Shown: in pieces, positions 25,313-33,495 of the stretch
How positions within the stretch are numbered: position 1 is the first letter of the stretch
Layout: every line of letters begins with the position of its first letter
NCBI GenBank assembly: GCA_963771355.1
Contig: CAVYTA010000005.1
Coordinates: 1 to 64,000 of the forward strand
Direction of reading: 5' to 3'
Length of the DNA: 64,000 nt
From: an uncultured Candidatus Rokubacteria bacterium
Lineage (GTDB): Bacteria > Methylomirabilota > Methylomirabilia > Rokubacteriales > CSP1-6
The notes under the pieces: model-generated
Told to the model about the DNA's origin: nothing
Seen by the model: the letters and a program-made list of their open reading frames with translations, nothing else
Databases searched by the model: none
Translations under genes and position numbers: made by a program

Positions 25313-26877
25313 TACGGCGTCTCCCCGGCCCGGCCCTTGGTGGCGAACTGCCGCTCGTACAGCGCGCGAAGCTCCTCGAGCGTGGTCGCCTGGCCCGGGC
25401 CCTTGTCCTCACGGATGTGCGCGATGCGGGCGAAGCGCAGCGCCATCCCCGAGGGATAGGTCGGACTGCGCTGGATCTCGTTGTACTCGACTTCGACGAC
25501 GACCTCCGGCTGCACCCGCACGGTGTAGCCGTCGTCGGCGAGGGAGAGGGCGCGCAGGCGTTCGGTCATCACACCGAACTCCGCGTCGGTGAGGCCCTTG
25601 AAGGTCTTGCCGACGTCCGCGAAGGTCTCTCCGTCGCGCACGGCCAGATGATAGTTGGACAGCCAGCCCCGCCGCCGCCCCGAGCCGCGGTCGGCGGCGA
25701 CTATCACGCAGTCGATGGTCTCCGGGGTCTTGAGCTTGAACCAGCGCTTGCCGCGCCCGCCCGGCTCGTACGGCGAGCGCGGGTCCTTGGCCATCACCCC
25801 TTCGTGGCCCGCGGCAAGCGCGCGGGCATGAAACGTCCGGGCCGACTCGGCGTCGTCGATCAGCACACGCTCGGCCAGGTAGCGGCCGCCGGTCACGCGG
25901 GCCAGCGCCTCCCAGCGTTCGGCCTGGGACGCGTCGATGAGCGAGCGGCCGTCGGCGTGCAGGCAATCGAAGAAGTGCAGGGCGAGCGGCATCTCGCGGG
26001 CCAGGGCTTCCACGCCGTGGACCCGGCGGAAGCGCCGCATCAGCTCCTGGAAGGGCAGCGGCCGGCCCTCCGCGTCCAGCGCCACGACCTCGCCGTCGAG
26101 GATGAAGGGCGCCCCCCGCAGCCCGCGAGCGACGGCCGCCACGTCCGGCAGGCTCCGGGTGACGTCGGAGAGACGGCGCGTCCAGATGCCCACCCGGTCA
26201 CCCTCGCGATGCACCTGCACGCGGGCGCCGTCGTACTTGAACTCCAGGGCGGTGCGACCGCCGTGGGCGCGCAGCACGTCCTCGAAGTCGGTCGCCAGCT
26301 CGGCCAGCATCGGCAGCAGCGGGACGAACGGCCGCGGCGCCACGCCGGCGAGGGCCGCCGCCCCGCCCGCCCGCGCCAGCGCCGCGACCGCAGCCAGGTC
26401 GCCGAGGAACAGCGCGGCCCGGCGGACGGCGGTCAGGTCGGCGGCGGCGGCTACCCCGATGGCCTCGAGCACGAGACCGTCGGAGACGCCGGTGCGCAGC
26501 TCACCCCCGAGAATTCGATTCAGGAACTCGCGCTCCTCCTCGCCGGCACGCGCCGACAGCTCCGCCAGGCGCGCCTGCCGCGCTCCGCGCGAGCCACTGC
26601 CCGTTGCCTCGGCTACCGCCGCGAACGCGGCGCTCACGTCGCCGAGAGTGAGCGGCGGGCCCCCGCGCGCCGGGAGGCCGCGCGGCAGGCCGCGCACGCC
26701 GAGCACACGGGGATCTGAAGTGGGGAACGGATGGCCGGTGAGAAACGCCACCGCCGACGGGAGCTCGCTCGTGTCGACGGCCTGGAGGAAGTCGGCCACG
26801 AGCCGCCGCTTGTCGAGGCGCCCCGGCGTGGCCTCGAGCCGCCGGCCGAGGCGGGCGAAATCGGCGAAGAGCGTCAC
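25312..26877 (-). CDS. ATP-dependent DNA ligase (DBD-adenylation-OB, LigB/archaeal type)
   Basis: 'EFKYDGARVQVH', 'ILDGEVV', 'HEGVMAK', 'WFKLK', 'ALRFARI..IREDK'. Confidence 0.95.
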   Translation of the reverse strand: MTLFADFARLGRRLEATPGRLDKRRLVADFLQAVDTSELPSAVAFLTGHPFPTSDPRVLGVRGLPRGLPARGGPPLTLGDVSAAFAAVAEATGSGSRGARQARLAELSARAGEEEREFLNRILGGELRTGVSDGLVLEAIGVAAAADLTAVRRAALFLGDLAAVAALARAGGAAALAGVAPRPFVPLLPMLAELATDFEDVLRAHGGRTALEFKYDGARVQVHREGDRVGIWTRRLSDVTRSLPDVAAVARGLRGAPFILDGEVVALDAEGRPLPFQELMRRFRRVHGVEALAREMPLALHFFDCLHADGRSLIDASQAERWEALARVTGGRYLAERVLIDDAESARTFHARALAAGHEGVMAKDPRSPYEPGGRGKRWFKLKTPETIDCVIVAADRGSGRRRGWLSNYHLAVRDGETFADVGKTFKGLTDAEFGVMTERLRALSLADDGYTVRVQPEVVVEVEYNEIQRSPTYPSGMALRFARIAHIREDKGPGQATTLEELRALYERQFATKGRAGETP

Positions 26878-27016
26878 GCCCCCATTCTACGGGGTCGAAA
26901 AGCCCCGATCCCGGCGCATTCCTACCCGCCCCATCGGCTTGACAAGGCTCGAGCCGGGGTGTGCATTTAAGCGTGTCGGCGGTCGTACATAGGATCGACA
27001 CCGACCGGAGGTCACT

Positions 27017-27344
27017 ATGGCAGCCACTGTAGAGCGCATCGACGTCGGAACCGCACGGAAGAACGTGTCGAGTGGACAGGCGCTCCTCGTCTGCGCCTAC
27101 GAGGACGATGCGAAGTGCCGGAAAGGGTCGCCTGGAGGGCTCGATCCCCTTGGCCCGTTTCGAGACAATGGCGGCGACCCTCCCCAAGACCCAGGAGATC
27201 ATCTTCTACTGCGCTTGACCCGCCGAGGCGTCGGCTGCCGGGCAGGCAGCACGGTACATCGGGCGAGGATTCGAGAACGCCAAGGCGCTCCGCGGTGGGG
27301 TCCAGGCATGGGTCCAGGCCGGCCTTCCGGCGAAGGATGAGTGA
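27017..27344 (+). CDS. Rhodanese-like protein with in-frame TGA (YCA-U-P), probable selenoprotein; 1-nt indel near 27123
   Basis: Joined frames read MAATVERIDV...LLVCAYEDDAKCRK/GRLEGSIPL...QEIIFYCA*PAEASAAGQAARYIGRGFENAKALRGGVQAWVQAGLP; TGA at 27216-27218. Confidence 0.8.
27221..27265 (+). promoter_or_regulatory. Putative bacterial SECIS element (rhodanese gene)
   Basis: Stem GCTGCC (27234-39) / GGCAGC (27245-50), loop GGGCA; lower pairing CGCCGA with TC(G)GGCG. Confidence 0.65.
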
Positions 27345-27505
27345 GCGAGCGAGGCGCGATCTCAGCGCTTAGCCCTTCGCGCGTGACCAGGAGCATCCTG
27401 TTCTCCGTCGTGAGCACAAAAATTCCTTGACACGCTGGTCGCCCGGGCTGTACCTGAGGCGGAACGGGTCACGGCCAATTGACCGGCGAGACAGCTCCTG
27501 ACACG

Positions 27506-28078
27506 ATGGCCAGCGCCTCCGCACGGAGGCGAACGCCCCCTCGCGGCTACTTGGCCATCATCCGCACGATCGACAAGTTTACCGAGATCACCAGCTACGT
27601 GTTCGTGGTCGTGATCATTCCCCTGATCCTGGCCAATGTCGTCGAGGTCTTCGCCCGCTACGTGCTGCGGTCGCCGACCGTCTGGGCCCTCGACGTGACC
27701 ACGATGTCCTACGCGGCCCTCTTCATGCTGGGGGCGGCACTGGCCCTTCTCAAGGGCGCGCACGTCCGGACCGACATGCTATGGGAGCGGTTCTCGGACC
27801 GAAAGAAGGGGATGATCGACAGCGTGGCCCTGCTGATCTTCTTCCTGCCGACCATGGCCGTGCTGTTTTCCATCTCCATCGACGATTTCCTCTACTCGAT
27901 CTCGATCGACGAGCGGTCCAGCTCCGGCGCCTGGACGCCGATCTTGTGGCCGCTGCGCGGCGTGATCCCGCTGACCGCGTTCATGCTGTTCGTCCAGGGC
28001 ATCTCCGAGCTCATGAAGAGCCTCTGGGCCTGGCGAACCGGGGAGTTCCTGACCGTGCACGAGAAGATCGAGATCTGA
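27506..28078 (+). CDS. dctQ: TRAP transporter small permease
   Basis: 'EVFARYV', 'GAHVRTD', four TM segments. Confidence 0.9.
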   Translation: MASASARRRTPPRGYLAIIRTIDKFTEITSYVFVVVIIPLILANVVEVFARYVLRSPTVWALDVTTMSYAALFMLGAALALLKGAHVRTDMLWERFSDRKKGMIDSVALLIFFLPTMAVLFSISIDDFLYSISIDERSSSGAWTPILWPLRGVIPLTAFMLFVQGISELMKSLWAWRTGEFLTVHEKIEI

Positions 28079-28082
28079 GGGC

Positions 28083-29622
28083 ATGAGCGTCAACGAGGCG
28101 CTCGGATTTCTCATGCTCCTCAGCATGGTCGCGGTCATCTTCATCGGCTTCCCGATCTCCTTCACGCTGCTGTTCCTCGCCCTGGTGTTCGGCGGATTGG
28201 GATTGGGGTGGAACCAGACCTTCAATCTCGCCTATCTGCAGATCTGGGGCACGATGAAGGACGAGATCTTCCCCGCGGTGCCGCTCTTCATCTTCATGGG
28301 CTTCATGACCGAGCAGGCCGGGCTCATGGAGCGGCTGTTCGGGGCGATGAGGAGCCTGCTCGCCTCGGTGCGCGGCTCGCTCTATCTGGCGGTCATCCTG
28401 ACCGCCACCATCTTCGCCATGGCCACCGGCATCGTCGGCGCGGCGGTGACGGTGCTCGGCATCATGGCCGCCCCGATGATGCTCAAGTCCGGCTACGACG
28501 CGCGCTTGTCGGCCGGCGCGATCGCCGCCGGCGGCACGCTCGGCATCCTGATTCCGCCCAGCATCATGCTGGTGGTGATGGGCCCGGTCATGGGCGTGCC
28601 CGTCAACATGCTGTACTCGGCGGCCTTCGGCCCCGGCTTCTTGCTCGCCTCCTGCTACATCGGCTACACGCTCCTGCGCAGCTTCATCAACCCGAAGCTG
28701 GGGCCGGCCATGACCATGGAGGAGCGCCGGGCCGCCTACGACGACATGACGACGGAGAAGGTCCGCTTTCCCGTGGTCGGTGCTGGGTCTCGTCTGCATG
28801 GTCGCGATGACCTATCTCGGCGCCGACGTCGTCTTGAGTCGGCTGGACGTTCCGCCGCTCACCGTCAGCGTCGGCCCGGTCGTCGGTGTCGGGCGTCGCG
28901 CTGTTGCCCGCGCTGGCCACCGCGGTCCCCTACTTCCGGAACCGCTACTTCCGGGCGCGTGGTGCTGGGCGTCGCGCCGCTGAGCGCGCTCATCGGGTTC
29001 ACGCTCGGCACCATCATCGGCGGGCTGGCGACGCCGACCGAGGCGGCCTCGTGCGGAGCGTTCGGCGCCACCCTGCTGGCTTTGATCTATGGCCGGCTGG
29101 ACTTCAAGTCGGCCAAGAACGCGGCGATGGGCACGATGGTCACCGTCGCCATGGTCCTGTTCTTGGCGGTGGCGTCCAACGTGTTCGGCGTCCGTCTTCA
29201 CGAAGCTGGGCTCGGCCAACCTGATCACGGATTCGCTCCTCGCCCTCCCGGTGGGCGACTGGTGGAAGCTCGCGCTCATCATGGCCATCTTCTTCATCCT
29301 GGGATGGCCGTTCGAATGGCCGGTGATCATCCTCGTCTTTCTGCCGATCGTCCTGCCGGTGATCGAGAAGTTCCAGCTCGGCCTCAACAAGCTCGATTTG
29401 CTGATCTGGGTCGGCACCGTGATCGCGGTCAACATGCAGACGGCGTACTTGAGTCCGCCGGTGGCGATGTCCGCCTACTATCTGCGCAACGTGGTGCCGC
29501 AATGGAGCCTGTCCACCATCTACCGGGGCATGGCCGACTACATGGTGATCCAGGTCTTCGTCCTCATCGTGCTGCTGCTCTTCCCGAAGATCGCCCTGTG
29601 GCTGCCGCACTTCGTGCGGTAG
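28083..29622 (+). CDS. dctM: TRAP transporter large permease (several indels at 28.78-29.19 kb)
   Basis: 'AVPLFIFMG', 'GGTLGILIPPS', 'ATPTEAA', 'QTAYLSPP' spread over frames. Confidence 0.88.
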
Positions 29623-29644
29623 GGGAGACGCCGCCGGGGAGACG

Positions 29645-29674
29645 AAAAGAAAGGGCGGCCGAGGGGCCGCCCTT
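29645..29674 (-). terminator. Intrinsic terminator between convergent dctM and dctP
   Basis: Stem AAGGGCGGCC / GGCCGCCCTT with loop GAGG; U-rich tail on the minus strand. Confidence 0.75.
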
Positions 29675-29699
29675 CTCGTGTCTCGACCCGGTCCGGCGA

Positions 29700-30818
29700 T
29701 CAGCGCTTCGCGGGCCAGTAGTGATCAGCCTGGAAGCTGTAGGGCGGGAACATGAAGCGCTTGGCCGGCACGACCTTCGACGCATAGGCGCGCTGCGACT
29801 CGTAGACCTTCTTGAAGAACGGGTTCTTGGCGGATTCGGCCGCCGCGAACTCGTCCCACACCTTGAGAAACGCCTTGTTGATCTCGGGCGGCGTGGTGAG
29901 CAGCTTCACGTTGTGCTTCTCCACCAACTCGGCGATGGCGTCCGCGTTCTGCCGCTGCCACGACGCCCACCAGCGCAGGAAGGTCTCCGACGTGGCCGAC
30001 TGGATCGCCTCCCGCTGCTGGGGCGTCAGGCTGTCCCAGACGTCCTTGTTGATGGCGAGCTCGGCGACCGAGGCGCTCTCGTGCATGCCCGGCGTGTAGT
30101 GGTACTTCCAGACCGTGTGGAGGCCGAGCCGGTGGTCCTCGACGCCGCCGACCCACTCCGCACAGTCGATGGTGCCACGCTCGGCGGCGGGCAGGATCTC
30201 GCCGCCCGGCATGTTGACCACGGCCATCCCCATCTTGGAGTAGAGCTCGGCCACGATGCCGGTCTGGCGGCACTTCATGCCCCGGAAGTCGGCCAGGTCC
30301 TTGATCGGGCGCTTGAACCAGCCCATCGCCTGCGGGCTCGGGGGGATGCTGGGGAACGCGACGAGGTTGAGCTTGAGCTCCTTCTGGTAGAACTCGTTCC
30401 AGAGGTCGAGCCCGCCGCCGTCATAGACCCAGCCGATGAAGTCGATGGCATCCATCCCCGCGATGCCGGCCGGCGTGTTGGCGAAGAGCGTCGCCGCCTT
30501 GTTCTTGCCAAACCACCAGTAGGAGATCCCGTAGGCGCCGTCGATCACCTTCTTGTGGGTCGCGTCGAGGATCTCGAACGGCGGCACGATGGCCCCGCCC
30601 GGCAAGGCGTCGATCTTGAGCTGGCCCGCGGTCAGCTTGTCGACTCGATCGGCAAAGAACTTGAAGGCCTCCTGGGTCGTGGATGACGCCGGCACCGCGG
30701 ACTGCATCTTGAGCACTCGCGGCGGTTGGGCCTGCTGGGCGGGCACTGGTCCGGCGAACGCCACCGTGATCGACACCGCCGCGACCACGGCGGCTCTCGT
30801 GAGGGTAGTAAAGGCCAT
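29700..30818 (-). CDS. dctP: TRAP transporter solute-binding protein
   Basis: Signal peptide, 'QAMGWF', 'FRGMKCR', 'MPGGEILPAAERGTID'. Confidence 0.92.
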   Translation of the reverse strand: MAFTTLTRAAVVAAVSITVAFAGPVPAQQAQPPRVLKMQSAVPASSTTQEAFKFFADRVDKLTAGQLKIDALPGGAIVPPFEILDATHKKVIDGAYGISYWWFGKNKAATLFANTPAGIAGMDAIDFIGWVYDGGGLDLWNEFYQKELKLNLVAFPSIPPSPQAMGWFKRPIKDLADFRGMKCRQTGIVAELYSKMGMAVVNMPGGEILPAAERGTIDCAEWVGGVEDHRLGLHTVWKYHYTPGMHESASVAELAINKDVWDSLTPQQREAIQSATSETFLRWWASWQRQNADAIAELVEKHNVKLLTTPPEINKAFLKVWDEFAAAESAKNPFFKKVYESQRAYASKVVPAKRFMFPPYSFQADHYWPAKR

Positions 30819-31014
30819 TCTTGTCATCCTCCTATTGTGCGAAGCGGGTGTGGGCCCCTTCTTCGGTCTCGCTGGCCGAAAGCTTACCTCGGAGCAGGGG
30901 CTTTCAACCAGAGGGACCGTTCGGGCCCCCGCTGAGGCCGCCCGGCCACACGCTGTGACTCCCCGGGAGGCAGTTTCCAGCCACGCGGACCGATTCTGGT
31001 GTTAGATAGCGGAC

Positions 31015-31728
31015 ATGATTACAGGCCCTATCATCGCCGAGATCGCGGCGCTGGTCGGAGACCCTGCGAGAGCGACCATGGTGTCGGCGCTTCTCGATGG
31101 CCGCGCCCTGACCGCGAGCGAGCTTGCCGGTACGGCGCGAATCACGCCTCAAACCGCCAGCGCTCATCTCGCGAAGCTGACAGAGGCGGGCATGCTTTCG
31201 GTGGTCCGCAATGGCCGGGAGCGCCATTTCCGGCTTGCCTCGCCGACAGTGGCAGACATGATCGACGGGATCGTCGCCGTCGCTCTAGAGAAGAGACCAC
31301 GATACCGCCCCCTATCCCAGCAAGCACGCGCGCTCAGTGCGGCCCGCATTTGCTACGACCACCTTGCGGGCCGCCTCAGCGTTGATCTCACCGATGCTTT
31401 CGTCGCCCGAAAATACATCGTGCTCGACGAGGAGACCGCTGAAATCACGACCGCGGGCACCCGGTTTCTCAGCACATTCGGGATCGAGCTGTCCAGACTA
31501 CGCTCGACCCGCCGGCCCCTTTGCCGACTCTGCCTCGATTGGACCGAACGACGCCCACACATCGCGGGAGCGGTAGGGGCCGCGATCACCAGGCGCTGCT
31601 TCGAACTCGGCTGGATGGAAAGGATGAAGCGCAGCCACGCCGTTATCGTCACCCCGTTGGGGCGGCGGGGCTTCCAGGAGAGCTTCGGCATCGCCGCGTC
31701 CGACCCGGGCGAGCGACGGACACGCTAG
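31015..31728 (+). CDS. ArsR family HTH regulator (CYDHLAG / CLDWTERR subfamily)
   Basis: 'DPARATM...TASELA...TASAHLAKL', 'ARICYDHLAG', 'CLDWTERRPHIAG'. Confidence 0.92.
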   Translation: MITGPIIAEIAALVGDPARATMVSALLDGRALTASELAGTARITPQTASAHLAKLTEAGMLSVVRNGRERHFRLASPTVADMIDGIVAVALEKRPRYRPLSQQARALSAARICYDHLAGRLSVDLTDAFVARKYIVLDEETAEITTAGTRFLSTFGIELSRLRSTRRPLCRLCLDWTERRPHIAGAVGAAITRRCFELGWMERMKRSHAVIVTPLGRRGFQESFGIAASDPGERRTR

Positions 31729-31850
31729 TGGCGGCCGGGGAATGATCGGGTGGGATCGCTCGAGAAGCCAACGCGAGGCCATTCGCTCTCGGAAACGGAT
31801 CCACGGCGACCTGCCGACGTCTTGCCGTCGGTCGCGGAACCCCGGTAGAT

Positions 31851-31870
31851 GCTTCGATCATCGCCGAAGT
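31851..31870. promoter_or_regulatory. Inverted repeat CTTCG-N8-CGAAG, candidate ArsR operator upstream of the AhpD-like gene
   Basis: gCTTCGatcatcgcCGAAGt; a weaker second copy follows at about 31883-31900. Confidence 0.45.
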
Positions 31871-32031
31871 GTTGAGCGCAGCGTTCGACCGTTTCGGATG
31901 TAAGATCGCCGTCAGGATTAACCAGCCCTTTCATCGTGGGTGTGCCGTCTAGATTGGTCCGCGTTGCGGCGCGTGGCGAACGGCTCGTGGCTGGCGTGGG
32001 ACGCCGCATCGCTGACGTGGGGGAGGTGGCC

Positions 32032-32586
32032 ATGCTCGAGGGGAAAACCCGCATTCCGCCGGTCGACGTCGAGACGCTTCCGGACGACCTGCGGGAGGTG
32101 CTCGAGGAACAGCGCAAGCTTCGGGGGGCGCCGCTCTATCCCTACCTCTTCTATGCGCGCAACCCGGCGTACTTCCGCGCCGCGCAGGCGATGTGGACCG
32201 CCCTCCAACAAGAGACGAAGCGCGTGCCCGGTACGCTCAGGGCGCTGCTCAACCGTCGCGTCGCCTGGTGGAACGGCTGCGAGTTCTGACAGGACGCCAA
32301 TGCTGCCGTGGGCAGCAGGCTCGGCGTCTCGACGGAGAAGCTCGAGGCGCTCAACGACTACGCGAAGAGCCCGCTCTTTACCGATGCGGAGAAGGTGGCG
32401 CTCGAATACGCCGACGCGATCACGGACACGCGCCGCGACGTGGACGACGAGCTGTTCGCGCGCGTGCACCGGCACTACGACGACGACACCATCGCGGAGC
32501 TGACGATGATCATCGCGTGGGAGAACGCATCCTCGCGCTTCAACCGGGCGTTCCGCATCCCCTCGCAAGGGTTCTGGAAGCGATGA
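32032..32586 (+). CDS. AhpD/CMD-like alkylhydroperoxidase with CxxU motif, probable selenoprotein (184 aa)
   Basis: RBS GGAGGT then ATG 32032. ORFs 31936-32289 and 32308-32586 share a frame and are separated only by TGA 32287-89 in 'NGCEF*QDAN'. Confidence 0.88.
32293..32328 (+). promoter_or_regulatory. Putative bacterial SECIS element (AhpD-like gene)
   Basis: Upper stem TGCTGCC / GGCAGCA with loop GTG, starting 11 nt after the TGA; lower stem GACGCC / GGCGTC. Confidence 0.75.
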
Positions 32587-32604
32587 TCGGCGGAGGTGCT
32601 GGCG

Positions 32605-33495
32605 TCATGTCCCCCGGCCCCAGAGCCCGCAATAGCGGCGCAGCACGTACGGCAAATTGTTTTCGTATCCAGGCCAGCTCGCGTACTTCGGCAGCTTGAG
32701 CTCTTTCTCGACTCCGTCCCAGCACTTGCCGGCGTGGGCCTCGGCTTTGACGGCGGCGGAGGCGTCCTGCAGGAATGTCAGGAAGTTTTGGACGTCCTCC
32801 TTGGTGCCGAGCCGCCCGCCGGGTCCAGGATGGCCGGGGATCAGCCGGTCCCATTCCATCGCCATGACCTTCTTCAGCGAGTCTTCCCATTCCATCGGAT
32901 ACGAGTCGATCATGCCGCGCCCCGGAAACGAGCCCACCGGAATGAAGTCGACGGCGAAGAGCAGCTTTTCCTTCGGTAGCCGCATGACGATGGAGCTGTC
33001 GGAATGGTTGAGGCCGAGGTAGGTCAGCTCCAGGCGAGTCTCCCCGAGCTTGAGCGTCTTGTCCTTGCGGAACGAGTCGTCGGGCAGGACCGTGTGCGGG
33101 TCCTTCAGCACCTCGAGGCGCTCCTTGGCGCGCTTGTGCGCGACGAAGGTGGCGCCGGCGTCCTTGAAGGGCTTGCCGCCCGCGATGTGGTCGAGGTGGT
33201 GATGGCTGTAGATGACGTACTTGATGGGCTGGTTCGTGACCTTGCGGATCTCGTCGACGTAGGTCGTGACCGCCTGCGGGCGGCCGTAGCCGATGGGGTC
33301 GGTGGCGATCACGCCCTCGGAGGTGACCACGAACATCGACTGGGCGTTGCCGTAGCGGAAGATGTAGACGTTGTCGGTGCCGTCGACCTTGGTGGTCGCG
33401 AACGGCGGCGGTGTCGGCTGCTGCGCCTGGGCGGTCACGAAGAGGCAGGCGGCGGCCAGGGCAGCGCTTACAAGAGCGTAGGACATGCGTGCCAT
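32605..33495 (-). CDS. Secreted MBL-fold metallo-hydrolase
   Basis: Signal peptide; 'YSHHHLDH', 'NHSD', 'IPGH'. Confidence 0.88.
   Translation of the reverse strand: MARMSYALVSAALAAACLFVTAQAQQPTPPPFATTKVDGTDNVYIFRYGNAQSMFVVTSEGVIATDPIGYGRPQAVTTYVDEIRKVTNQPIKYVIYSHHHLDHIAGGKPFKDAGATFVAHKRAKERLEVLKDPHTVLPDDSFRKDKTLKLGETRLELTYLGLNHSDSSIVMRLPKEKLLFAVDFIPVGSFPGRGMIDSYPMEWEDSLKKVMAMEWDRLIPGHPGPGGRLGTKEDVQNFLTFLQDASAAVKAEAHAGKCWDGVEKELKLPKYASWPGYENNLPYVLRRYCGLWGRGT

Follow-up and report, generated by a model that had tools for sequence, protein, structure and literature searches.

We analysed a stretch of 64,000 nucleotides (nt) of DNA from an uncultured Candidatus Rokubacteria bacterium (contig CAVYTA010000005.1 of assembly GCA_963771355.1; hereafter, the window), in which a rhodanese-like and an AhpD/CMD-like gene, 5 kb apart, each carry an in-frame TGA followed by a hairpin with the same stem. 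In all probability, both hairpins are ordinary bacterial selenocysteine insertion sequence (SECIS) elements, whose identical stem is a coincidence imposed by the encoded protein sequences. The window contains the common core, GCTGCC-N3-6-GGCAGC, at exactly two places (27234-27250 and 32302-32316), as compared with 0.06 occurrences expected from shuffles. As a sequence-only reading of this DNA had already noted, both loops are short and begin with G, and both 5' arms read GCT GCC, i.e., Ala-Ala, in proteins that are non-homologous (Pfam Rhodanese and Pfam CMD, respectively).

The rhodanese-like gene (27017..27344, + strand) contains a C-A-U motif, with U denoting selenocysteine (Sec). The protein, about 108 amino acids (aa) long in an intact relative, scores 29.1 bits against Pfam Rhodanese (cut-off 22.2). 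Its in-frame TGA, a predicted Sec codon (27216..27218, +), is embedded in the context IFYCA-U-PAEASAAGQAA. Hairpin 1 (27234..27250, +; GCTGCC/GGGCA/GGCAGC) is composed of a 5 nt loop on a 6 bp stem that starts 15 nt after the TGA; 21 nt lie between UGA and loop, with the loop G at 22 nt. It is the predicted minimum-energy fold at -10.9 kcal/mol (z about -2.3 for the minimal hairpin and -1.1 for a 44-nt stretch). As assembled, the gene contains one extra base near 27119-27125 in comparison with three relatives and is frameshifted upstream of the TGA; the extra base may be an assembly indel, and the window copy could be a pseudogene. The best NCBIfam match is NF041203 (rhodanese_LYCAU, E 3e-15), with which the YCAU motif and the Sec position are in common; with 55.9 bits for the partial protein and 51.4 bits for the intact relative, both below the cut-off of 115, it is a divergent relative and no formal member. 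Table 1 of PMC13188914 lists this type of family as "Rhodanese-like form 3" (CxU). The product is predicted to carry sulfur or selenium as a small protein of the rhodanese fold.

Relatives came from 151 genomes of the order, from which the 30 best loci were retrieved for each gene. The rhodanese site is TGA in 29 of 30 loci, the window's own included, and TGC in the remaining one. Among the 29 TGA-bearing homologues, 98.3% of the stem cells are paired, including 21 compensatory cells at two pairs; this covariation was equalled in 0 of 500 shuffles, and slid controls were much lower. The exact GCTGCC/GGCAGC core is found in 11/30 loci; 18 of the 29 TGA-bearing homologues have compensatory variants instead, and in the single cysteine (Cys) homologue the stem is broken.

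The AhpD/CMD-like gene (32032..32586, + strand) encodes 184 aa with read-through, including a C-E-F-U (CxxU) motif, and matches Pfam CMD with 38.6 bits (cut-off 23). Its TGA (32287..32289, +), again a predicted Sec codon, stands in the context NGCEF-U-QDANAAVGS and is conserved in 30/30 order-level loci. Hairpin 2 (32301..32317, +; TGCTGCC/GTG/GGCAGCA) has a 3 nt loop on a 7 bp stem; its core starts 12 nt after the TGA, and 18 nt separate UGA and loop, placing the loop G at 19 nt. At -10.5 kcal/mol it is likewise the predicted minimum-energy fold (z about -2.3 for the minimal hairpin and -2.9 for the 44-nt stretch). Over its full length, the protein matches the YciW-related (seleno)protein model NF053654 (E 5e-73), with the CxxU motif in common, at 244.6 bits and thus below the cut-off of 310; against TIGR01926 it reaches 40.3 bits (cut-off 81.8). 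Both the AhpD-like (CxxU) selenoproteins (TIGR01926, PF02627) and NF053654 are included in Table 1 of PMC13188914. The AhpD-fold product is predicted to be a thiol/selenol redox enzyme.

Among the AhpD loci of the order, the core is almost invariant (29/30). A broader, cross-taxon set comprised 74 AhpD loci, of which 8 did not cover the site and 66 were used; TGA is present in 62 of these and Cys in four, one Cys copy being a distant paralogue. The exact core is contained in 45 of the 62 TGA copies and variants in 17, with the GT of the loop kept in all 62. In the three close Cys homologues, the loop has changed from GTG to AAG throughout (3/3), whereas the stem is kept in two. These fates of loop and stem indicate that the loop G goes with Sec and the stem with the gene family. 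The Sec-to-Cys copies concerned (L279, L286 and L300, titled Rhizobium and Bradyrhizobium) constitute a natural control for the loop G.

The two TGAs are very likely Sec codons, given their conservation in relatives together with the SelB, SelD and tRNA-Sec encoded in the genome. In dozens of genomes, at identities as low as about 50%, the TGA is retained in the motif that aligns with Cys; for both proteins the best NCBIfam matches are "(seleno)protein" models, and the family profiles span the TGA. The 5.5 Mb genome (70% GC) encodes a SelB with a profile score over the cut-off, whose C-terminus can be aligned with the C-terminal domains of solved SelB structures, the SRKY-x-x-P-L-x-E-Y end included. 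The open reading frame upstream of selB is, judging by a motif, presumably SelA-like. Across the order, tRNA-Sec was found in 121 of the 151 genomes.

Correspondingly, both hairpins are very likely SECIS elements, as predicted from their position and fold. Measured against the bSECISearch consensus model (Fig. 2A of PMC13188914), no difference from a canonical bacterial SECIS was found in either. The consensus has an apical loop of 3-9 nt on a stem of 4-16 bp, a G in the first two loop positions that is usually followed by G or U, a UGA-to-loop distance of 16-37 nt, a minimum free energy of at most -7.5 kcal/mol, and SelB, tRNA-Sec and SelD in the genome. All of this applies to the two hairpins, which lie in frame downstream of the UGA, have stems of 6-7 bp and loops of 3-5 nt with G and then G or U (GGGCA and GUG) at 18-21 nt from the UGA, and are accompanied by a SelB whose C-terminus has the usual winged-helix form. 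A "6-8 base-pair stem" with a conserved G about 20 nt downstream is also described in PMC4605307. An Rfam scan of 26800-32800 yielded no SECIS family at E up to 1; the four weak matches that it gave were unrelated, all below the gathering score, and were rejected.

In established SelB biology, the complex of SelB, GTP and Sec-tRNA would bind the G-led loop via the last winged-helix domains of SelB and would deliver Sec to the UGA, which is located some 20 nt before the loop. SelB would read a G-led loop on a stem of 6-8 bp, with no particular stem sequence needed, and since a SECIS element of bacteria is part of the coding sequence, the stem of each family would be fixed by its own peptide. 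The AAVGS peptide of the AhpD-like protein has 1536 synonymous encodings, and GCTGCC/GGCAGC is the sole perfect 6-bp Watson-Crick stem among them. The AAGQAA peptide of the rhodanese permits eight Watson-Crick stems, GCTGCC/GGCAGC being one of them, and two of the eight dominate in relatives. With stems constrained in this way by the peptide, two Ala-Ala helices after Sec easily reach the same stem, and Ala-Ala is encoded at codons 4-7 after Sec in 5 of 37 Sec sites. The codon GCT makes up 2.5% of the Ala codons of the genome (1749 of 70,317 counted); its rarity, together with GCT GCC in both stems, fits selection on the RNA. Among 221 pairs of non-homologous Sec hairpins, one shares a 6-bp stem, while 0.2 or 1.3 are expected under two null models. 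The sequence-only reading had held the shared element to be hard to attribute to chance or sequencing error; the TGAs are very likely Sec codons, but the identity of the stems is likely a coincidence.

Several points weigh against this explanation. The sole stem-sharing pair is also a pair of neighbours, 5 kb apart, and the genome has no more than 20 non-homologous Sec pairs separated by 64 kb or less; by a rough estimate, stem identity combined with adjacency would arise in a few percent of cases per genome. In one relative (locus L288), moreover, the rhodanese and AhpD genes are about 1 kb apart. The thresholds of the generic hairpin rule described below were set after the folds had been seen, though inside the consensus as published in the figure cited above. 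Furthermore, Sec insertion and SelB binding are themselves predictions from sequence.

For the genome-wide view, every in-frame stop was scored for coding potential on both sides, and 80 TGA candidates were picked by eye and scanned against NCBIfam. This combination of a frame-dominance filter and profile scans replaced a paralogue-only BLAST screen for TGA/Cys pairs, which was rejected as noisy, with many antisense-frame matches and with TAG and TAA controls that also scored. NCBIfam profiles span the TGA in 34 of the 80 candidates, and two more are DsbA-type proteins by Pfam, resulting in 36 known-type Sec sites besides three new-type candidates; the other 41 were discarded, being true stops, coupled genes, frameshifts or candidates that lacked support. 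With further sites from homology and structure scans, as well as a C-terminal C-U-A-E-P site in a radical SAM protein, the genome has about 45 predicted Sec sites, a list that makes no claim to completeness, above all close to protein ends. The exact core is present at two of 43 predicted Sec sites, and the 16,284 control positions, made up of true stops and of Cys and Trp codons, all lack it; so do two Sec sites that were added later.

A generic rule, which demands a perfect stem of at least 6 bp, G[G/U] at loop position 1 or 2 and the loop G 16-27 nt after the UGA, is passed by 30 of 37 Sec sites, as compared with 2.1-4.2% of true stops and Cys/Trp codons. Of the five sites from outside the 37-gene set that had not been found by the filter itself, three pass. 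The seven known-family Sec sites that fail the strict hairpin filter, among them G000:C6:-1824664, C6:-1073583, C5:-877653 and C6:-636803, may use looser or non-canonical SECIS elements. A milder sequence bias at the loop flanks is real and compatible with the published loop pattern: relative to the loop G, C at -2 is found in 71% of Sec hairpins vs 30% of controls, A at -1 in 43% vs 12% (the preference at this position being A or C), and G/U at +2 in 80% vs 39%. This sample comprises 35 Sec and 449 control hairpins, with paralogues that are not independent.

Searching the 151 genomes with the exact pattern, TGA-N10-16-GCTGCC-G-N2-4-GGCAGC, gave 144 matches, which by hand count comprise 50 AhpD genes, two AhpD-like variants in the same register, 11 rhodanese genes and 81 others. 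A reversed-pattern control gave 96 matches, as against these 81 outside the two known families, and the TGA was in the coding frame in none of 15 inspected "other" matches. The exact-core probe finds no further Sec family above background, and we rejected it as a probe for Sec genes; the expectation that it would open up a wider selenoproteome was not borne out.

One alternative is a single copying of the hairpin between the neighbouring genes; such a local SECIS transfer would represent a route for the conversion of Cys to Sec. It would account for the same stem in genes 5 kb apart, and it gains from the proximity of the two genes in locus L288 and from their occurrence 31 kb apart on one contig in the genome G140. 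However, the identity is limited to 6+1 and 6+1 nt flanking loops of unequal length, the hairpins differ in their distance from the UGA, and the 3' arms are in different frames. Conserved synteny was considered and rejected, since the rhodanese gene lies close to the AhpD gene at just one of the 44 long-flanked loci; for both genes, the stem occurs in two families of the order whether or not they are adjacent, and the AhpD stem is forced by the peptide alone. A transfer is, therefore, very unlikely. Alternatively, the TGAs could be genuine stops or errors of the assembly, with hairpins that are incidental GC-rich stems. The frame errors nearby, i.e., the additional base of the rhodanese gene and the apparently broken frame of a TRAP dctM gene, and the possible pseudogene status of the rhodanese copy would suit this explanation, but it is highly improbable in view of TGAs conserved at Cys-aligned motifs, family profiles spanning them and a stem that covaries. 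Finally, the proposal of the sequence-only reading that GCTGCC-G-loop-GGCAGC is the sequence recognised by the SelB of this lineage, marking its Sec genes, is barely credible: notwithstanding the clean separation from the control sites and the weaker bias near the loop, the core is absent from 41 of 43 Sec sites (absence from other Sec genes being the very result which that reading had named as refuting it), gives way to compensatory variants in most rhodanese homologues, leads to no new family, and occurs both in AhpD genes titled as other phyla and in two Cys genes.

Concerning the last point, the closest AhpD gene records are mostly titled Rokubacteria or Methylomirabilota, but the core is also found in records titled Reyranella, Binataceae, Gemmatimonadales and others, bearing in mind that titles of metagenome-assembled genomes can be wrong; the two Cys genes of the AhpD family that contain it are from Bradyrhizobium. 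The core is, thus, confined neither to the lineage nor to Sec genes. In the literature, SECIS elements of different bacterial genes are described as often mutually dissimilar (PMC13188914); in the present case, two of them share a stem.

Regarding the gene neighbourhood, an ArsR-family regulator gene (31015..31728, + strand; Pfam HTH_20/HTH_5) precedes the AhpD-like gene, and this gene pair recurs, in either orientation, in 24 of 44 AhpD loci with a long upstream flank. The AhpD-fold enzyme would be under the neighbouring ArsR-type regulator. The TRAP dctM gene at 28083-29622 looks split over several frames, which is probably due to assembly indels.

The wider selenoproteome of this bacterium is dominated by redox proteins. 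It comprises at least six UGSC-family, six AhpD-like, three rhodanese and three formate dehydrogenase Sec genes as well as about 17 thioredoxin-fold ones. A Methylomirabilota metagenome-assembled genome with 63 predicted selenoprotein genes has been reported (Deng et al. 2026, as cited in PMC13188914, ref. 66), in comparison with which the present genome belongs to the same phylum and has a similarly large, redox-dominated set of about 45 sites. A hidden selenoproteome, as the sequence-only reading had anticipated, thus exists; however, it was reached by the generic screen and not by the core. Our literature search found no paper on Rokubacteria selenoproteins, nothing on DUF411 with selenocysteine and, by title or abstract start, no CoA-transferase selenoprotein family, although papers and supplements outside that search may list the latter two.

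The genome and its order probably encode Sec families that are absent from the 119-family catalogue of 2026, namely a CoA-transferase-fold protein, a DUF411/CopG protein and a small membrane protein, all with canonical hairpins; the comparison refers to the table of PMC13188914, and its supplements or other papers may list them. None of the three has an NCBIfam match at E 1e-5, none contains the GCTGCC core, and the first two came from the generic screen. The CoA-transferase-fold subunit A (PF01144; G000:C7:248361-249122, TGA 248670; L051, L215) has a conserved in-frame TGA in the motif LEHS-U-P, followed by a canonical SECIS. One TGA is present in 31 of the 32 matching genomes (of 151), and in 30/30 loci it occupies the same site, with a conserved CTCCA-GGC-NGG[A/G]G hairpin; Cys is found there in all 13 full-length homologues aligned. 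In alignments, the Sec falls on E in chain 6con_A and on A in 6coj_A, which we take to be Glu105 of IpdA and its E105A mutant, respectively. This alpha subunit would, thus, probably have Sec where the ring-cleaving hydrolase IpdA has a glutamate. A subunit B gene lies downstream, with GctB, AibB and IpdB as the closest solved chains.

In the DUF411/CopG protein (G000:C2:110696-111151, TGA 110813; L065), the predicted Sec is the first residue of the CxCC metal motif (SPT-U-GCC), with TGA in 21 and TGC in four of 25 loci. The small membrane protein (G000:C5:866717) has a conserved VL-U-P motif, with TGA in 6/6 matches, and may belong to the listed mercuric-transport family. It is located in a metal-resistance-like island (G000:C5:866484-877695; L217), where three Sec candidates, i.e., this VL-U-P protein, a MerB/SaoL-like lyase (SL-U-TT) and an HMA-domain protein (NF041115), are found near MerR-like regulator genes.

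Taken together, the SECIS feature is real and of the ordinary kind, and the claim of a lineage signature fails; no new rule of SelB recognition is gained. What is gained is a corrected annotation of the rhodanese-like and the AhpD-like gene and an example of an in-frame RNA signal that is shaped by the overlapping protein: the stem follows the peptide, and the loop G follows the Sec codon, being lost upon reversion to Cys. While an exact-sequence probe is useless here, a structural filter combined with Cys/TGA pairing brings to light some 45 Sec genes in a single genome.

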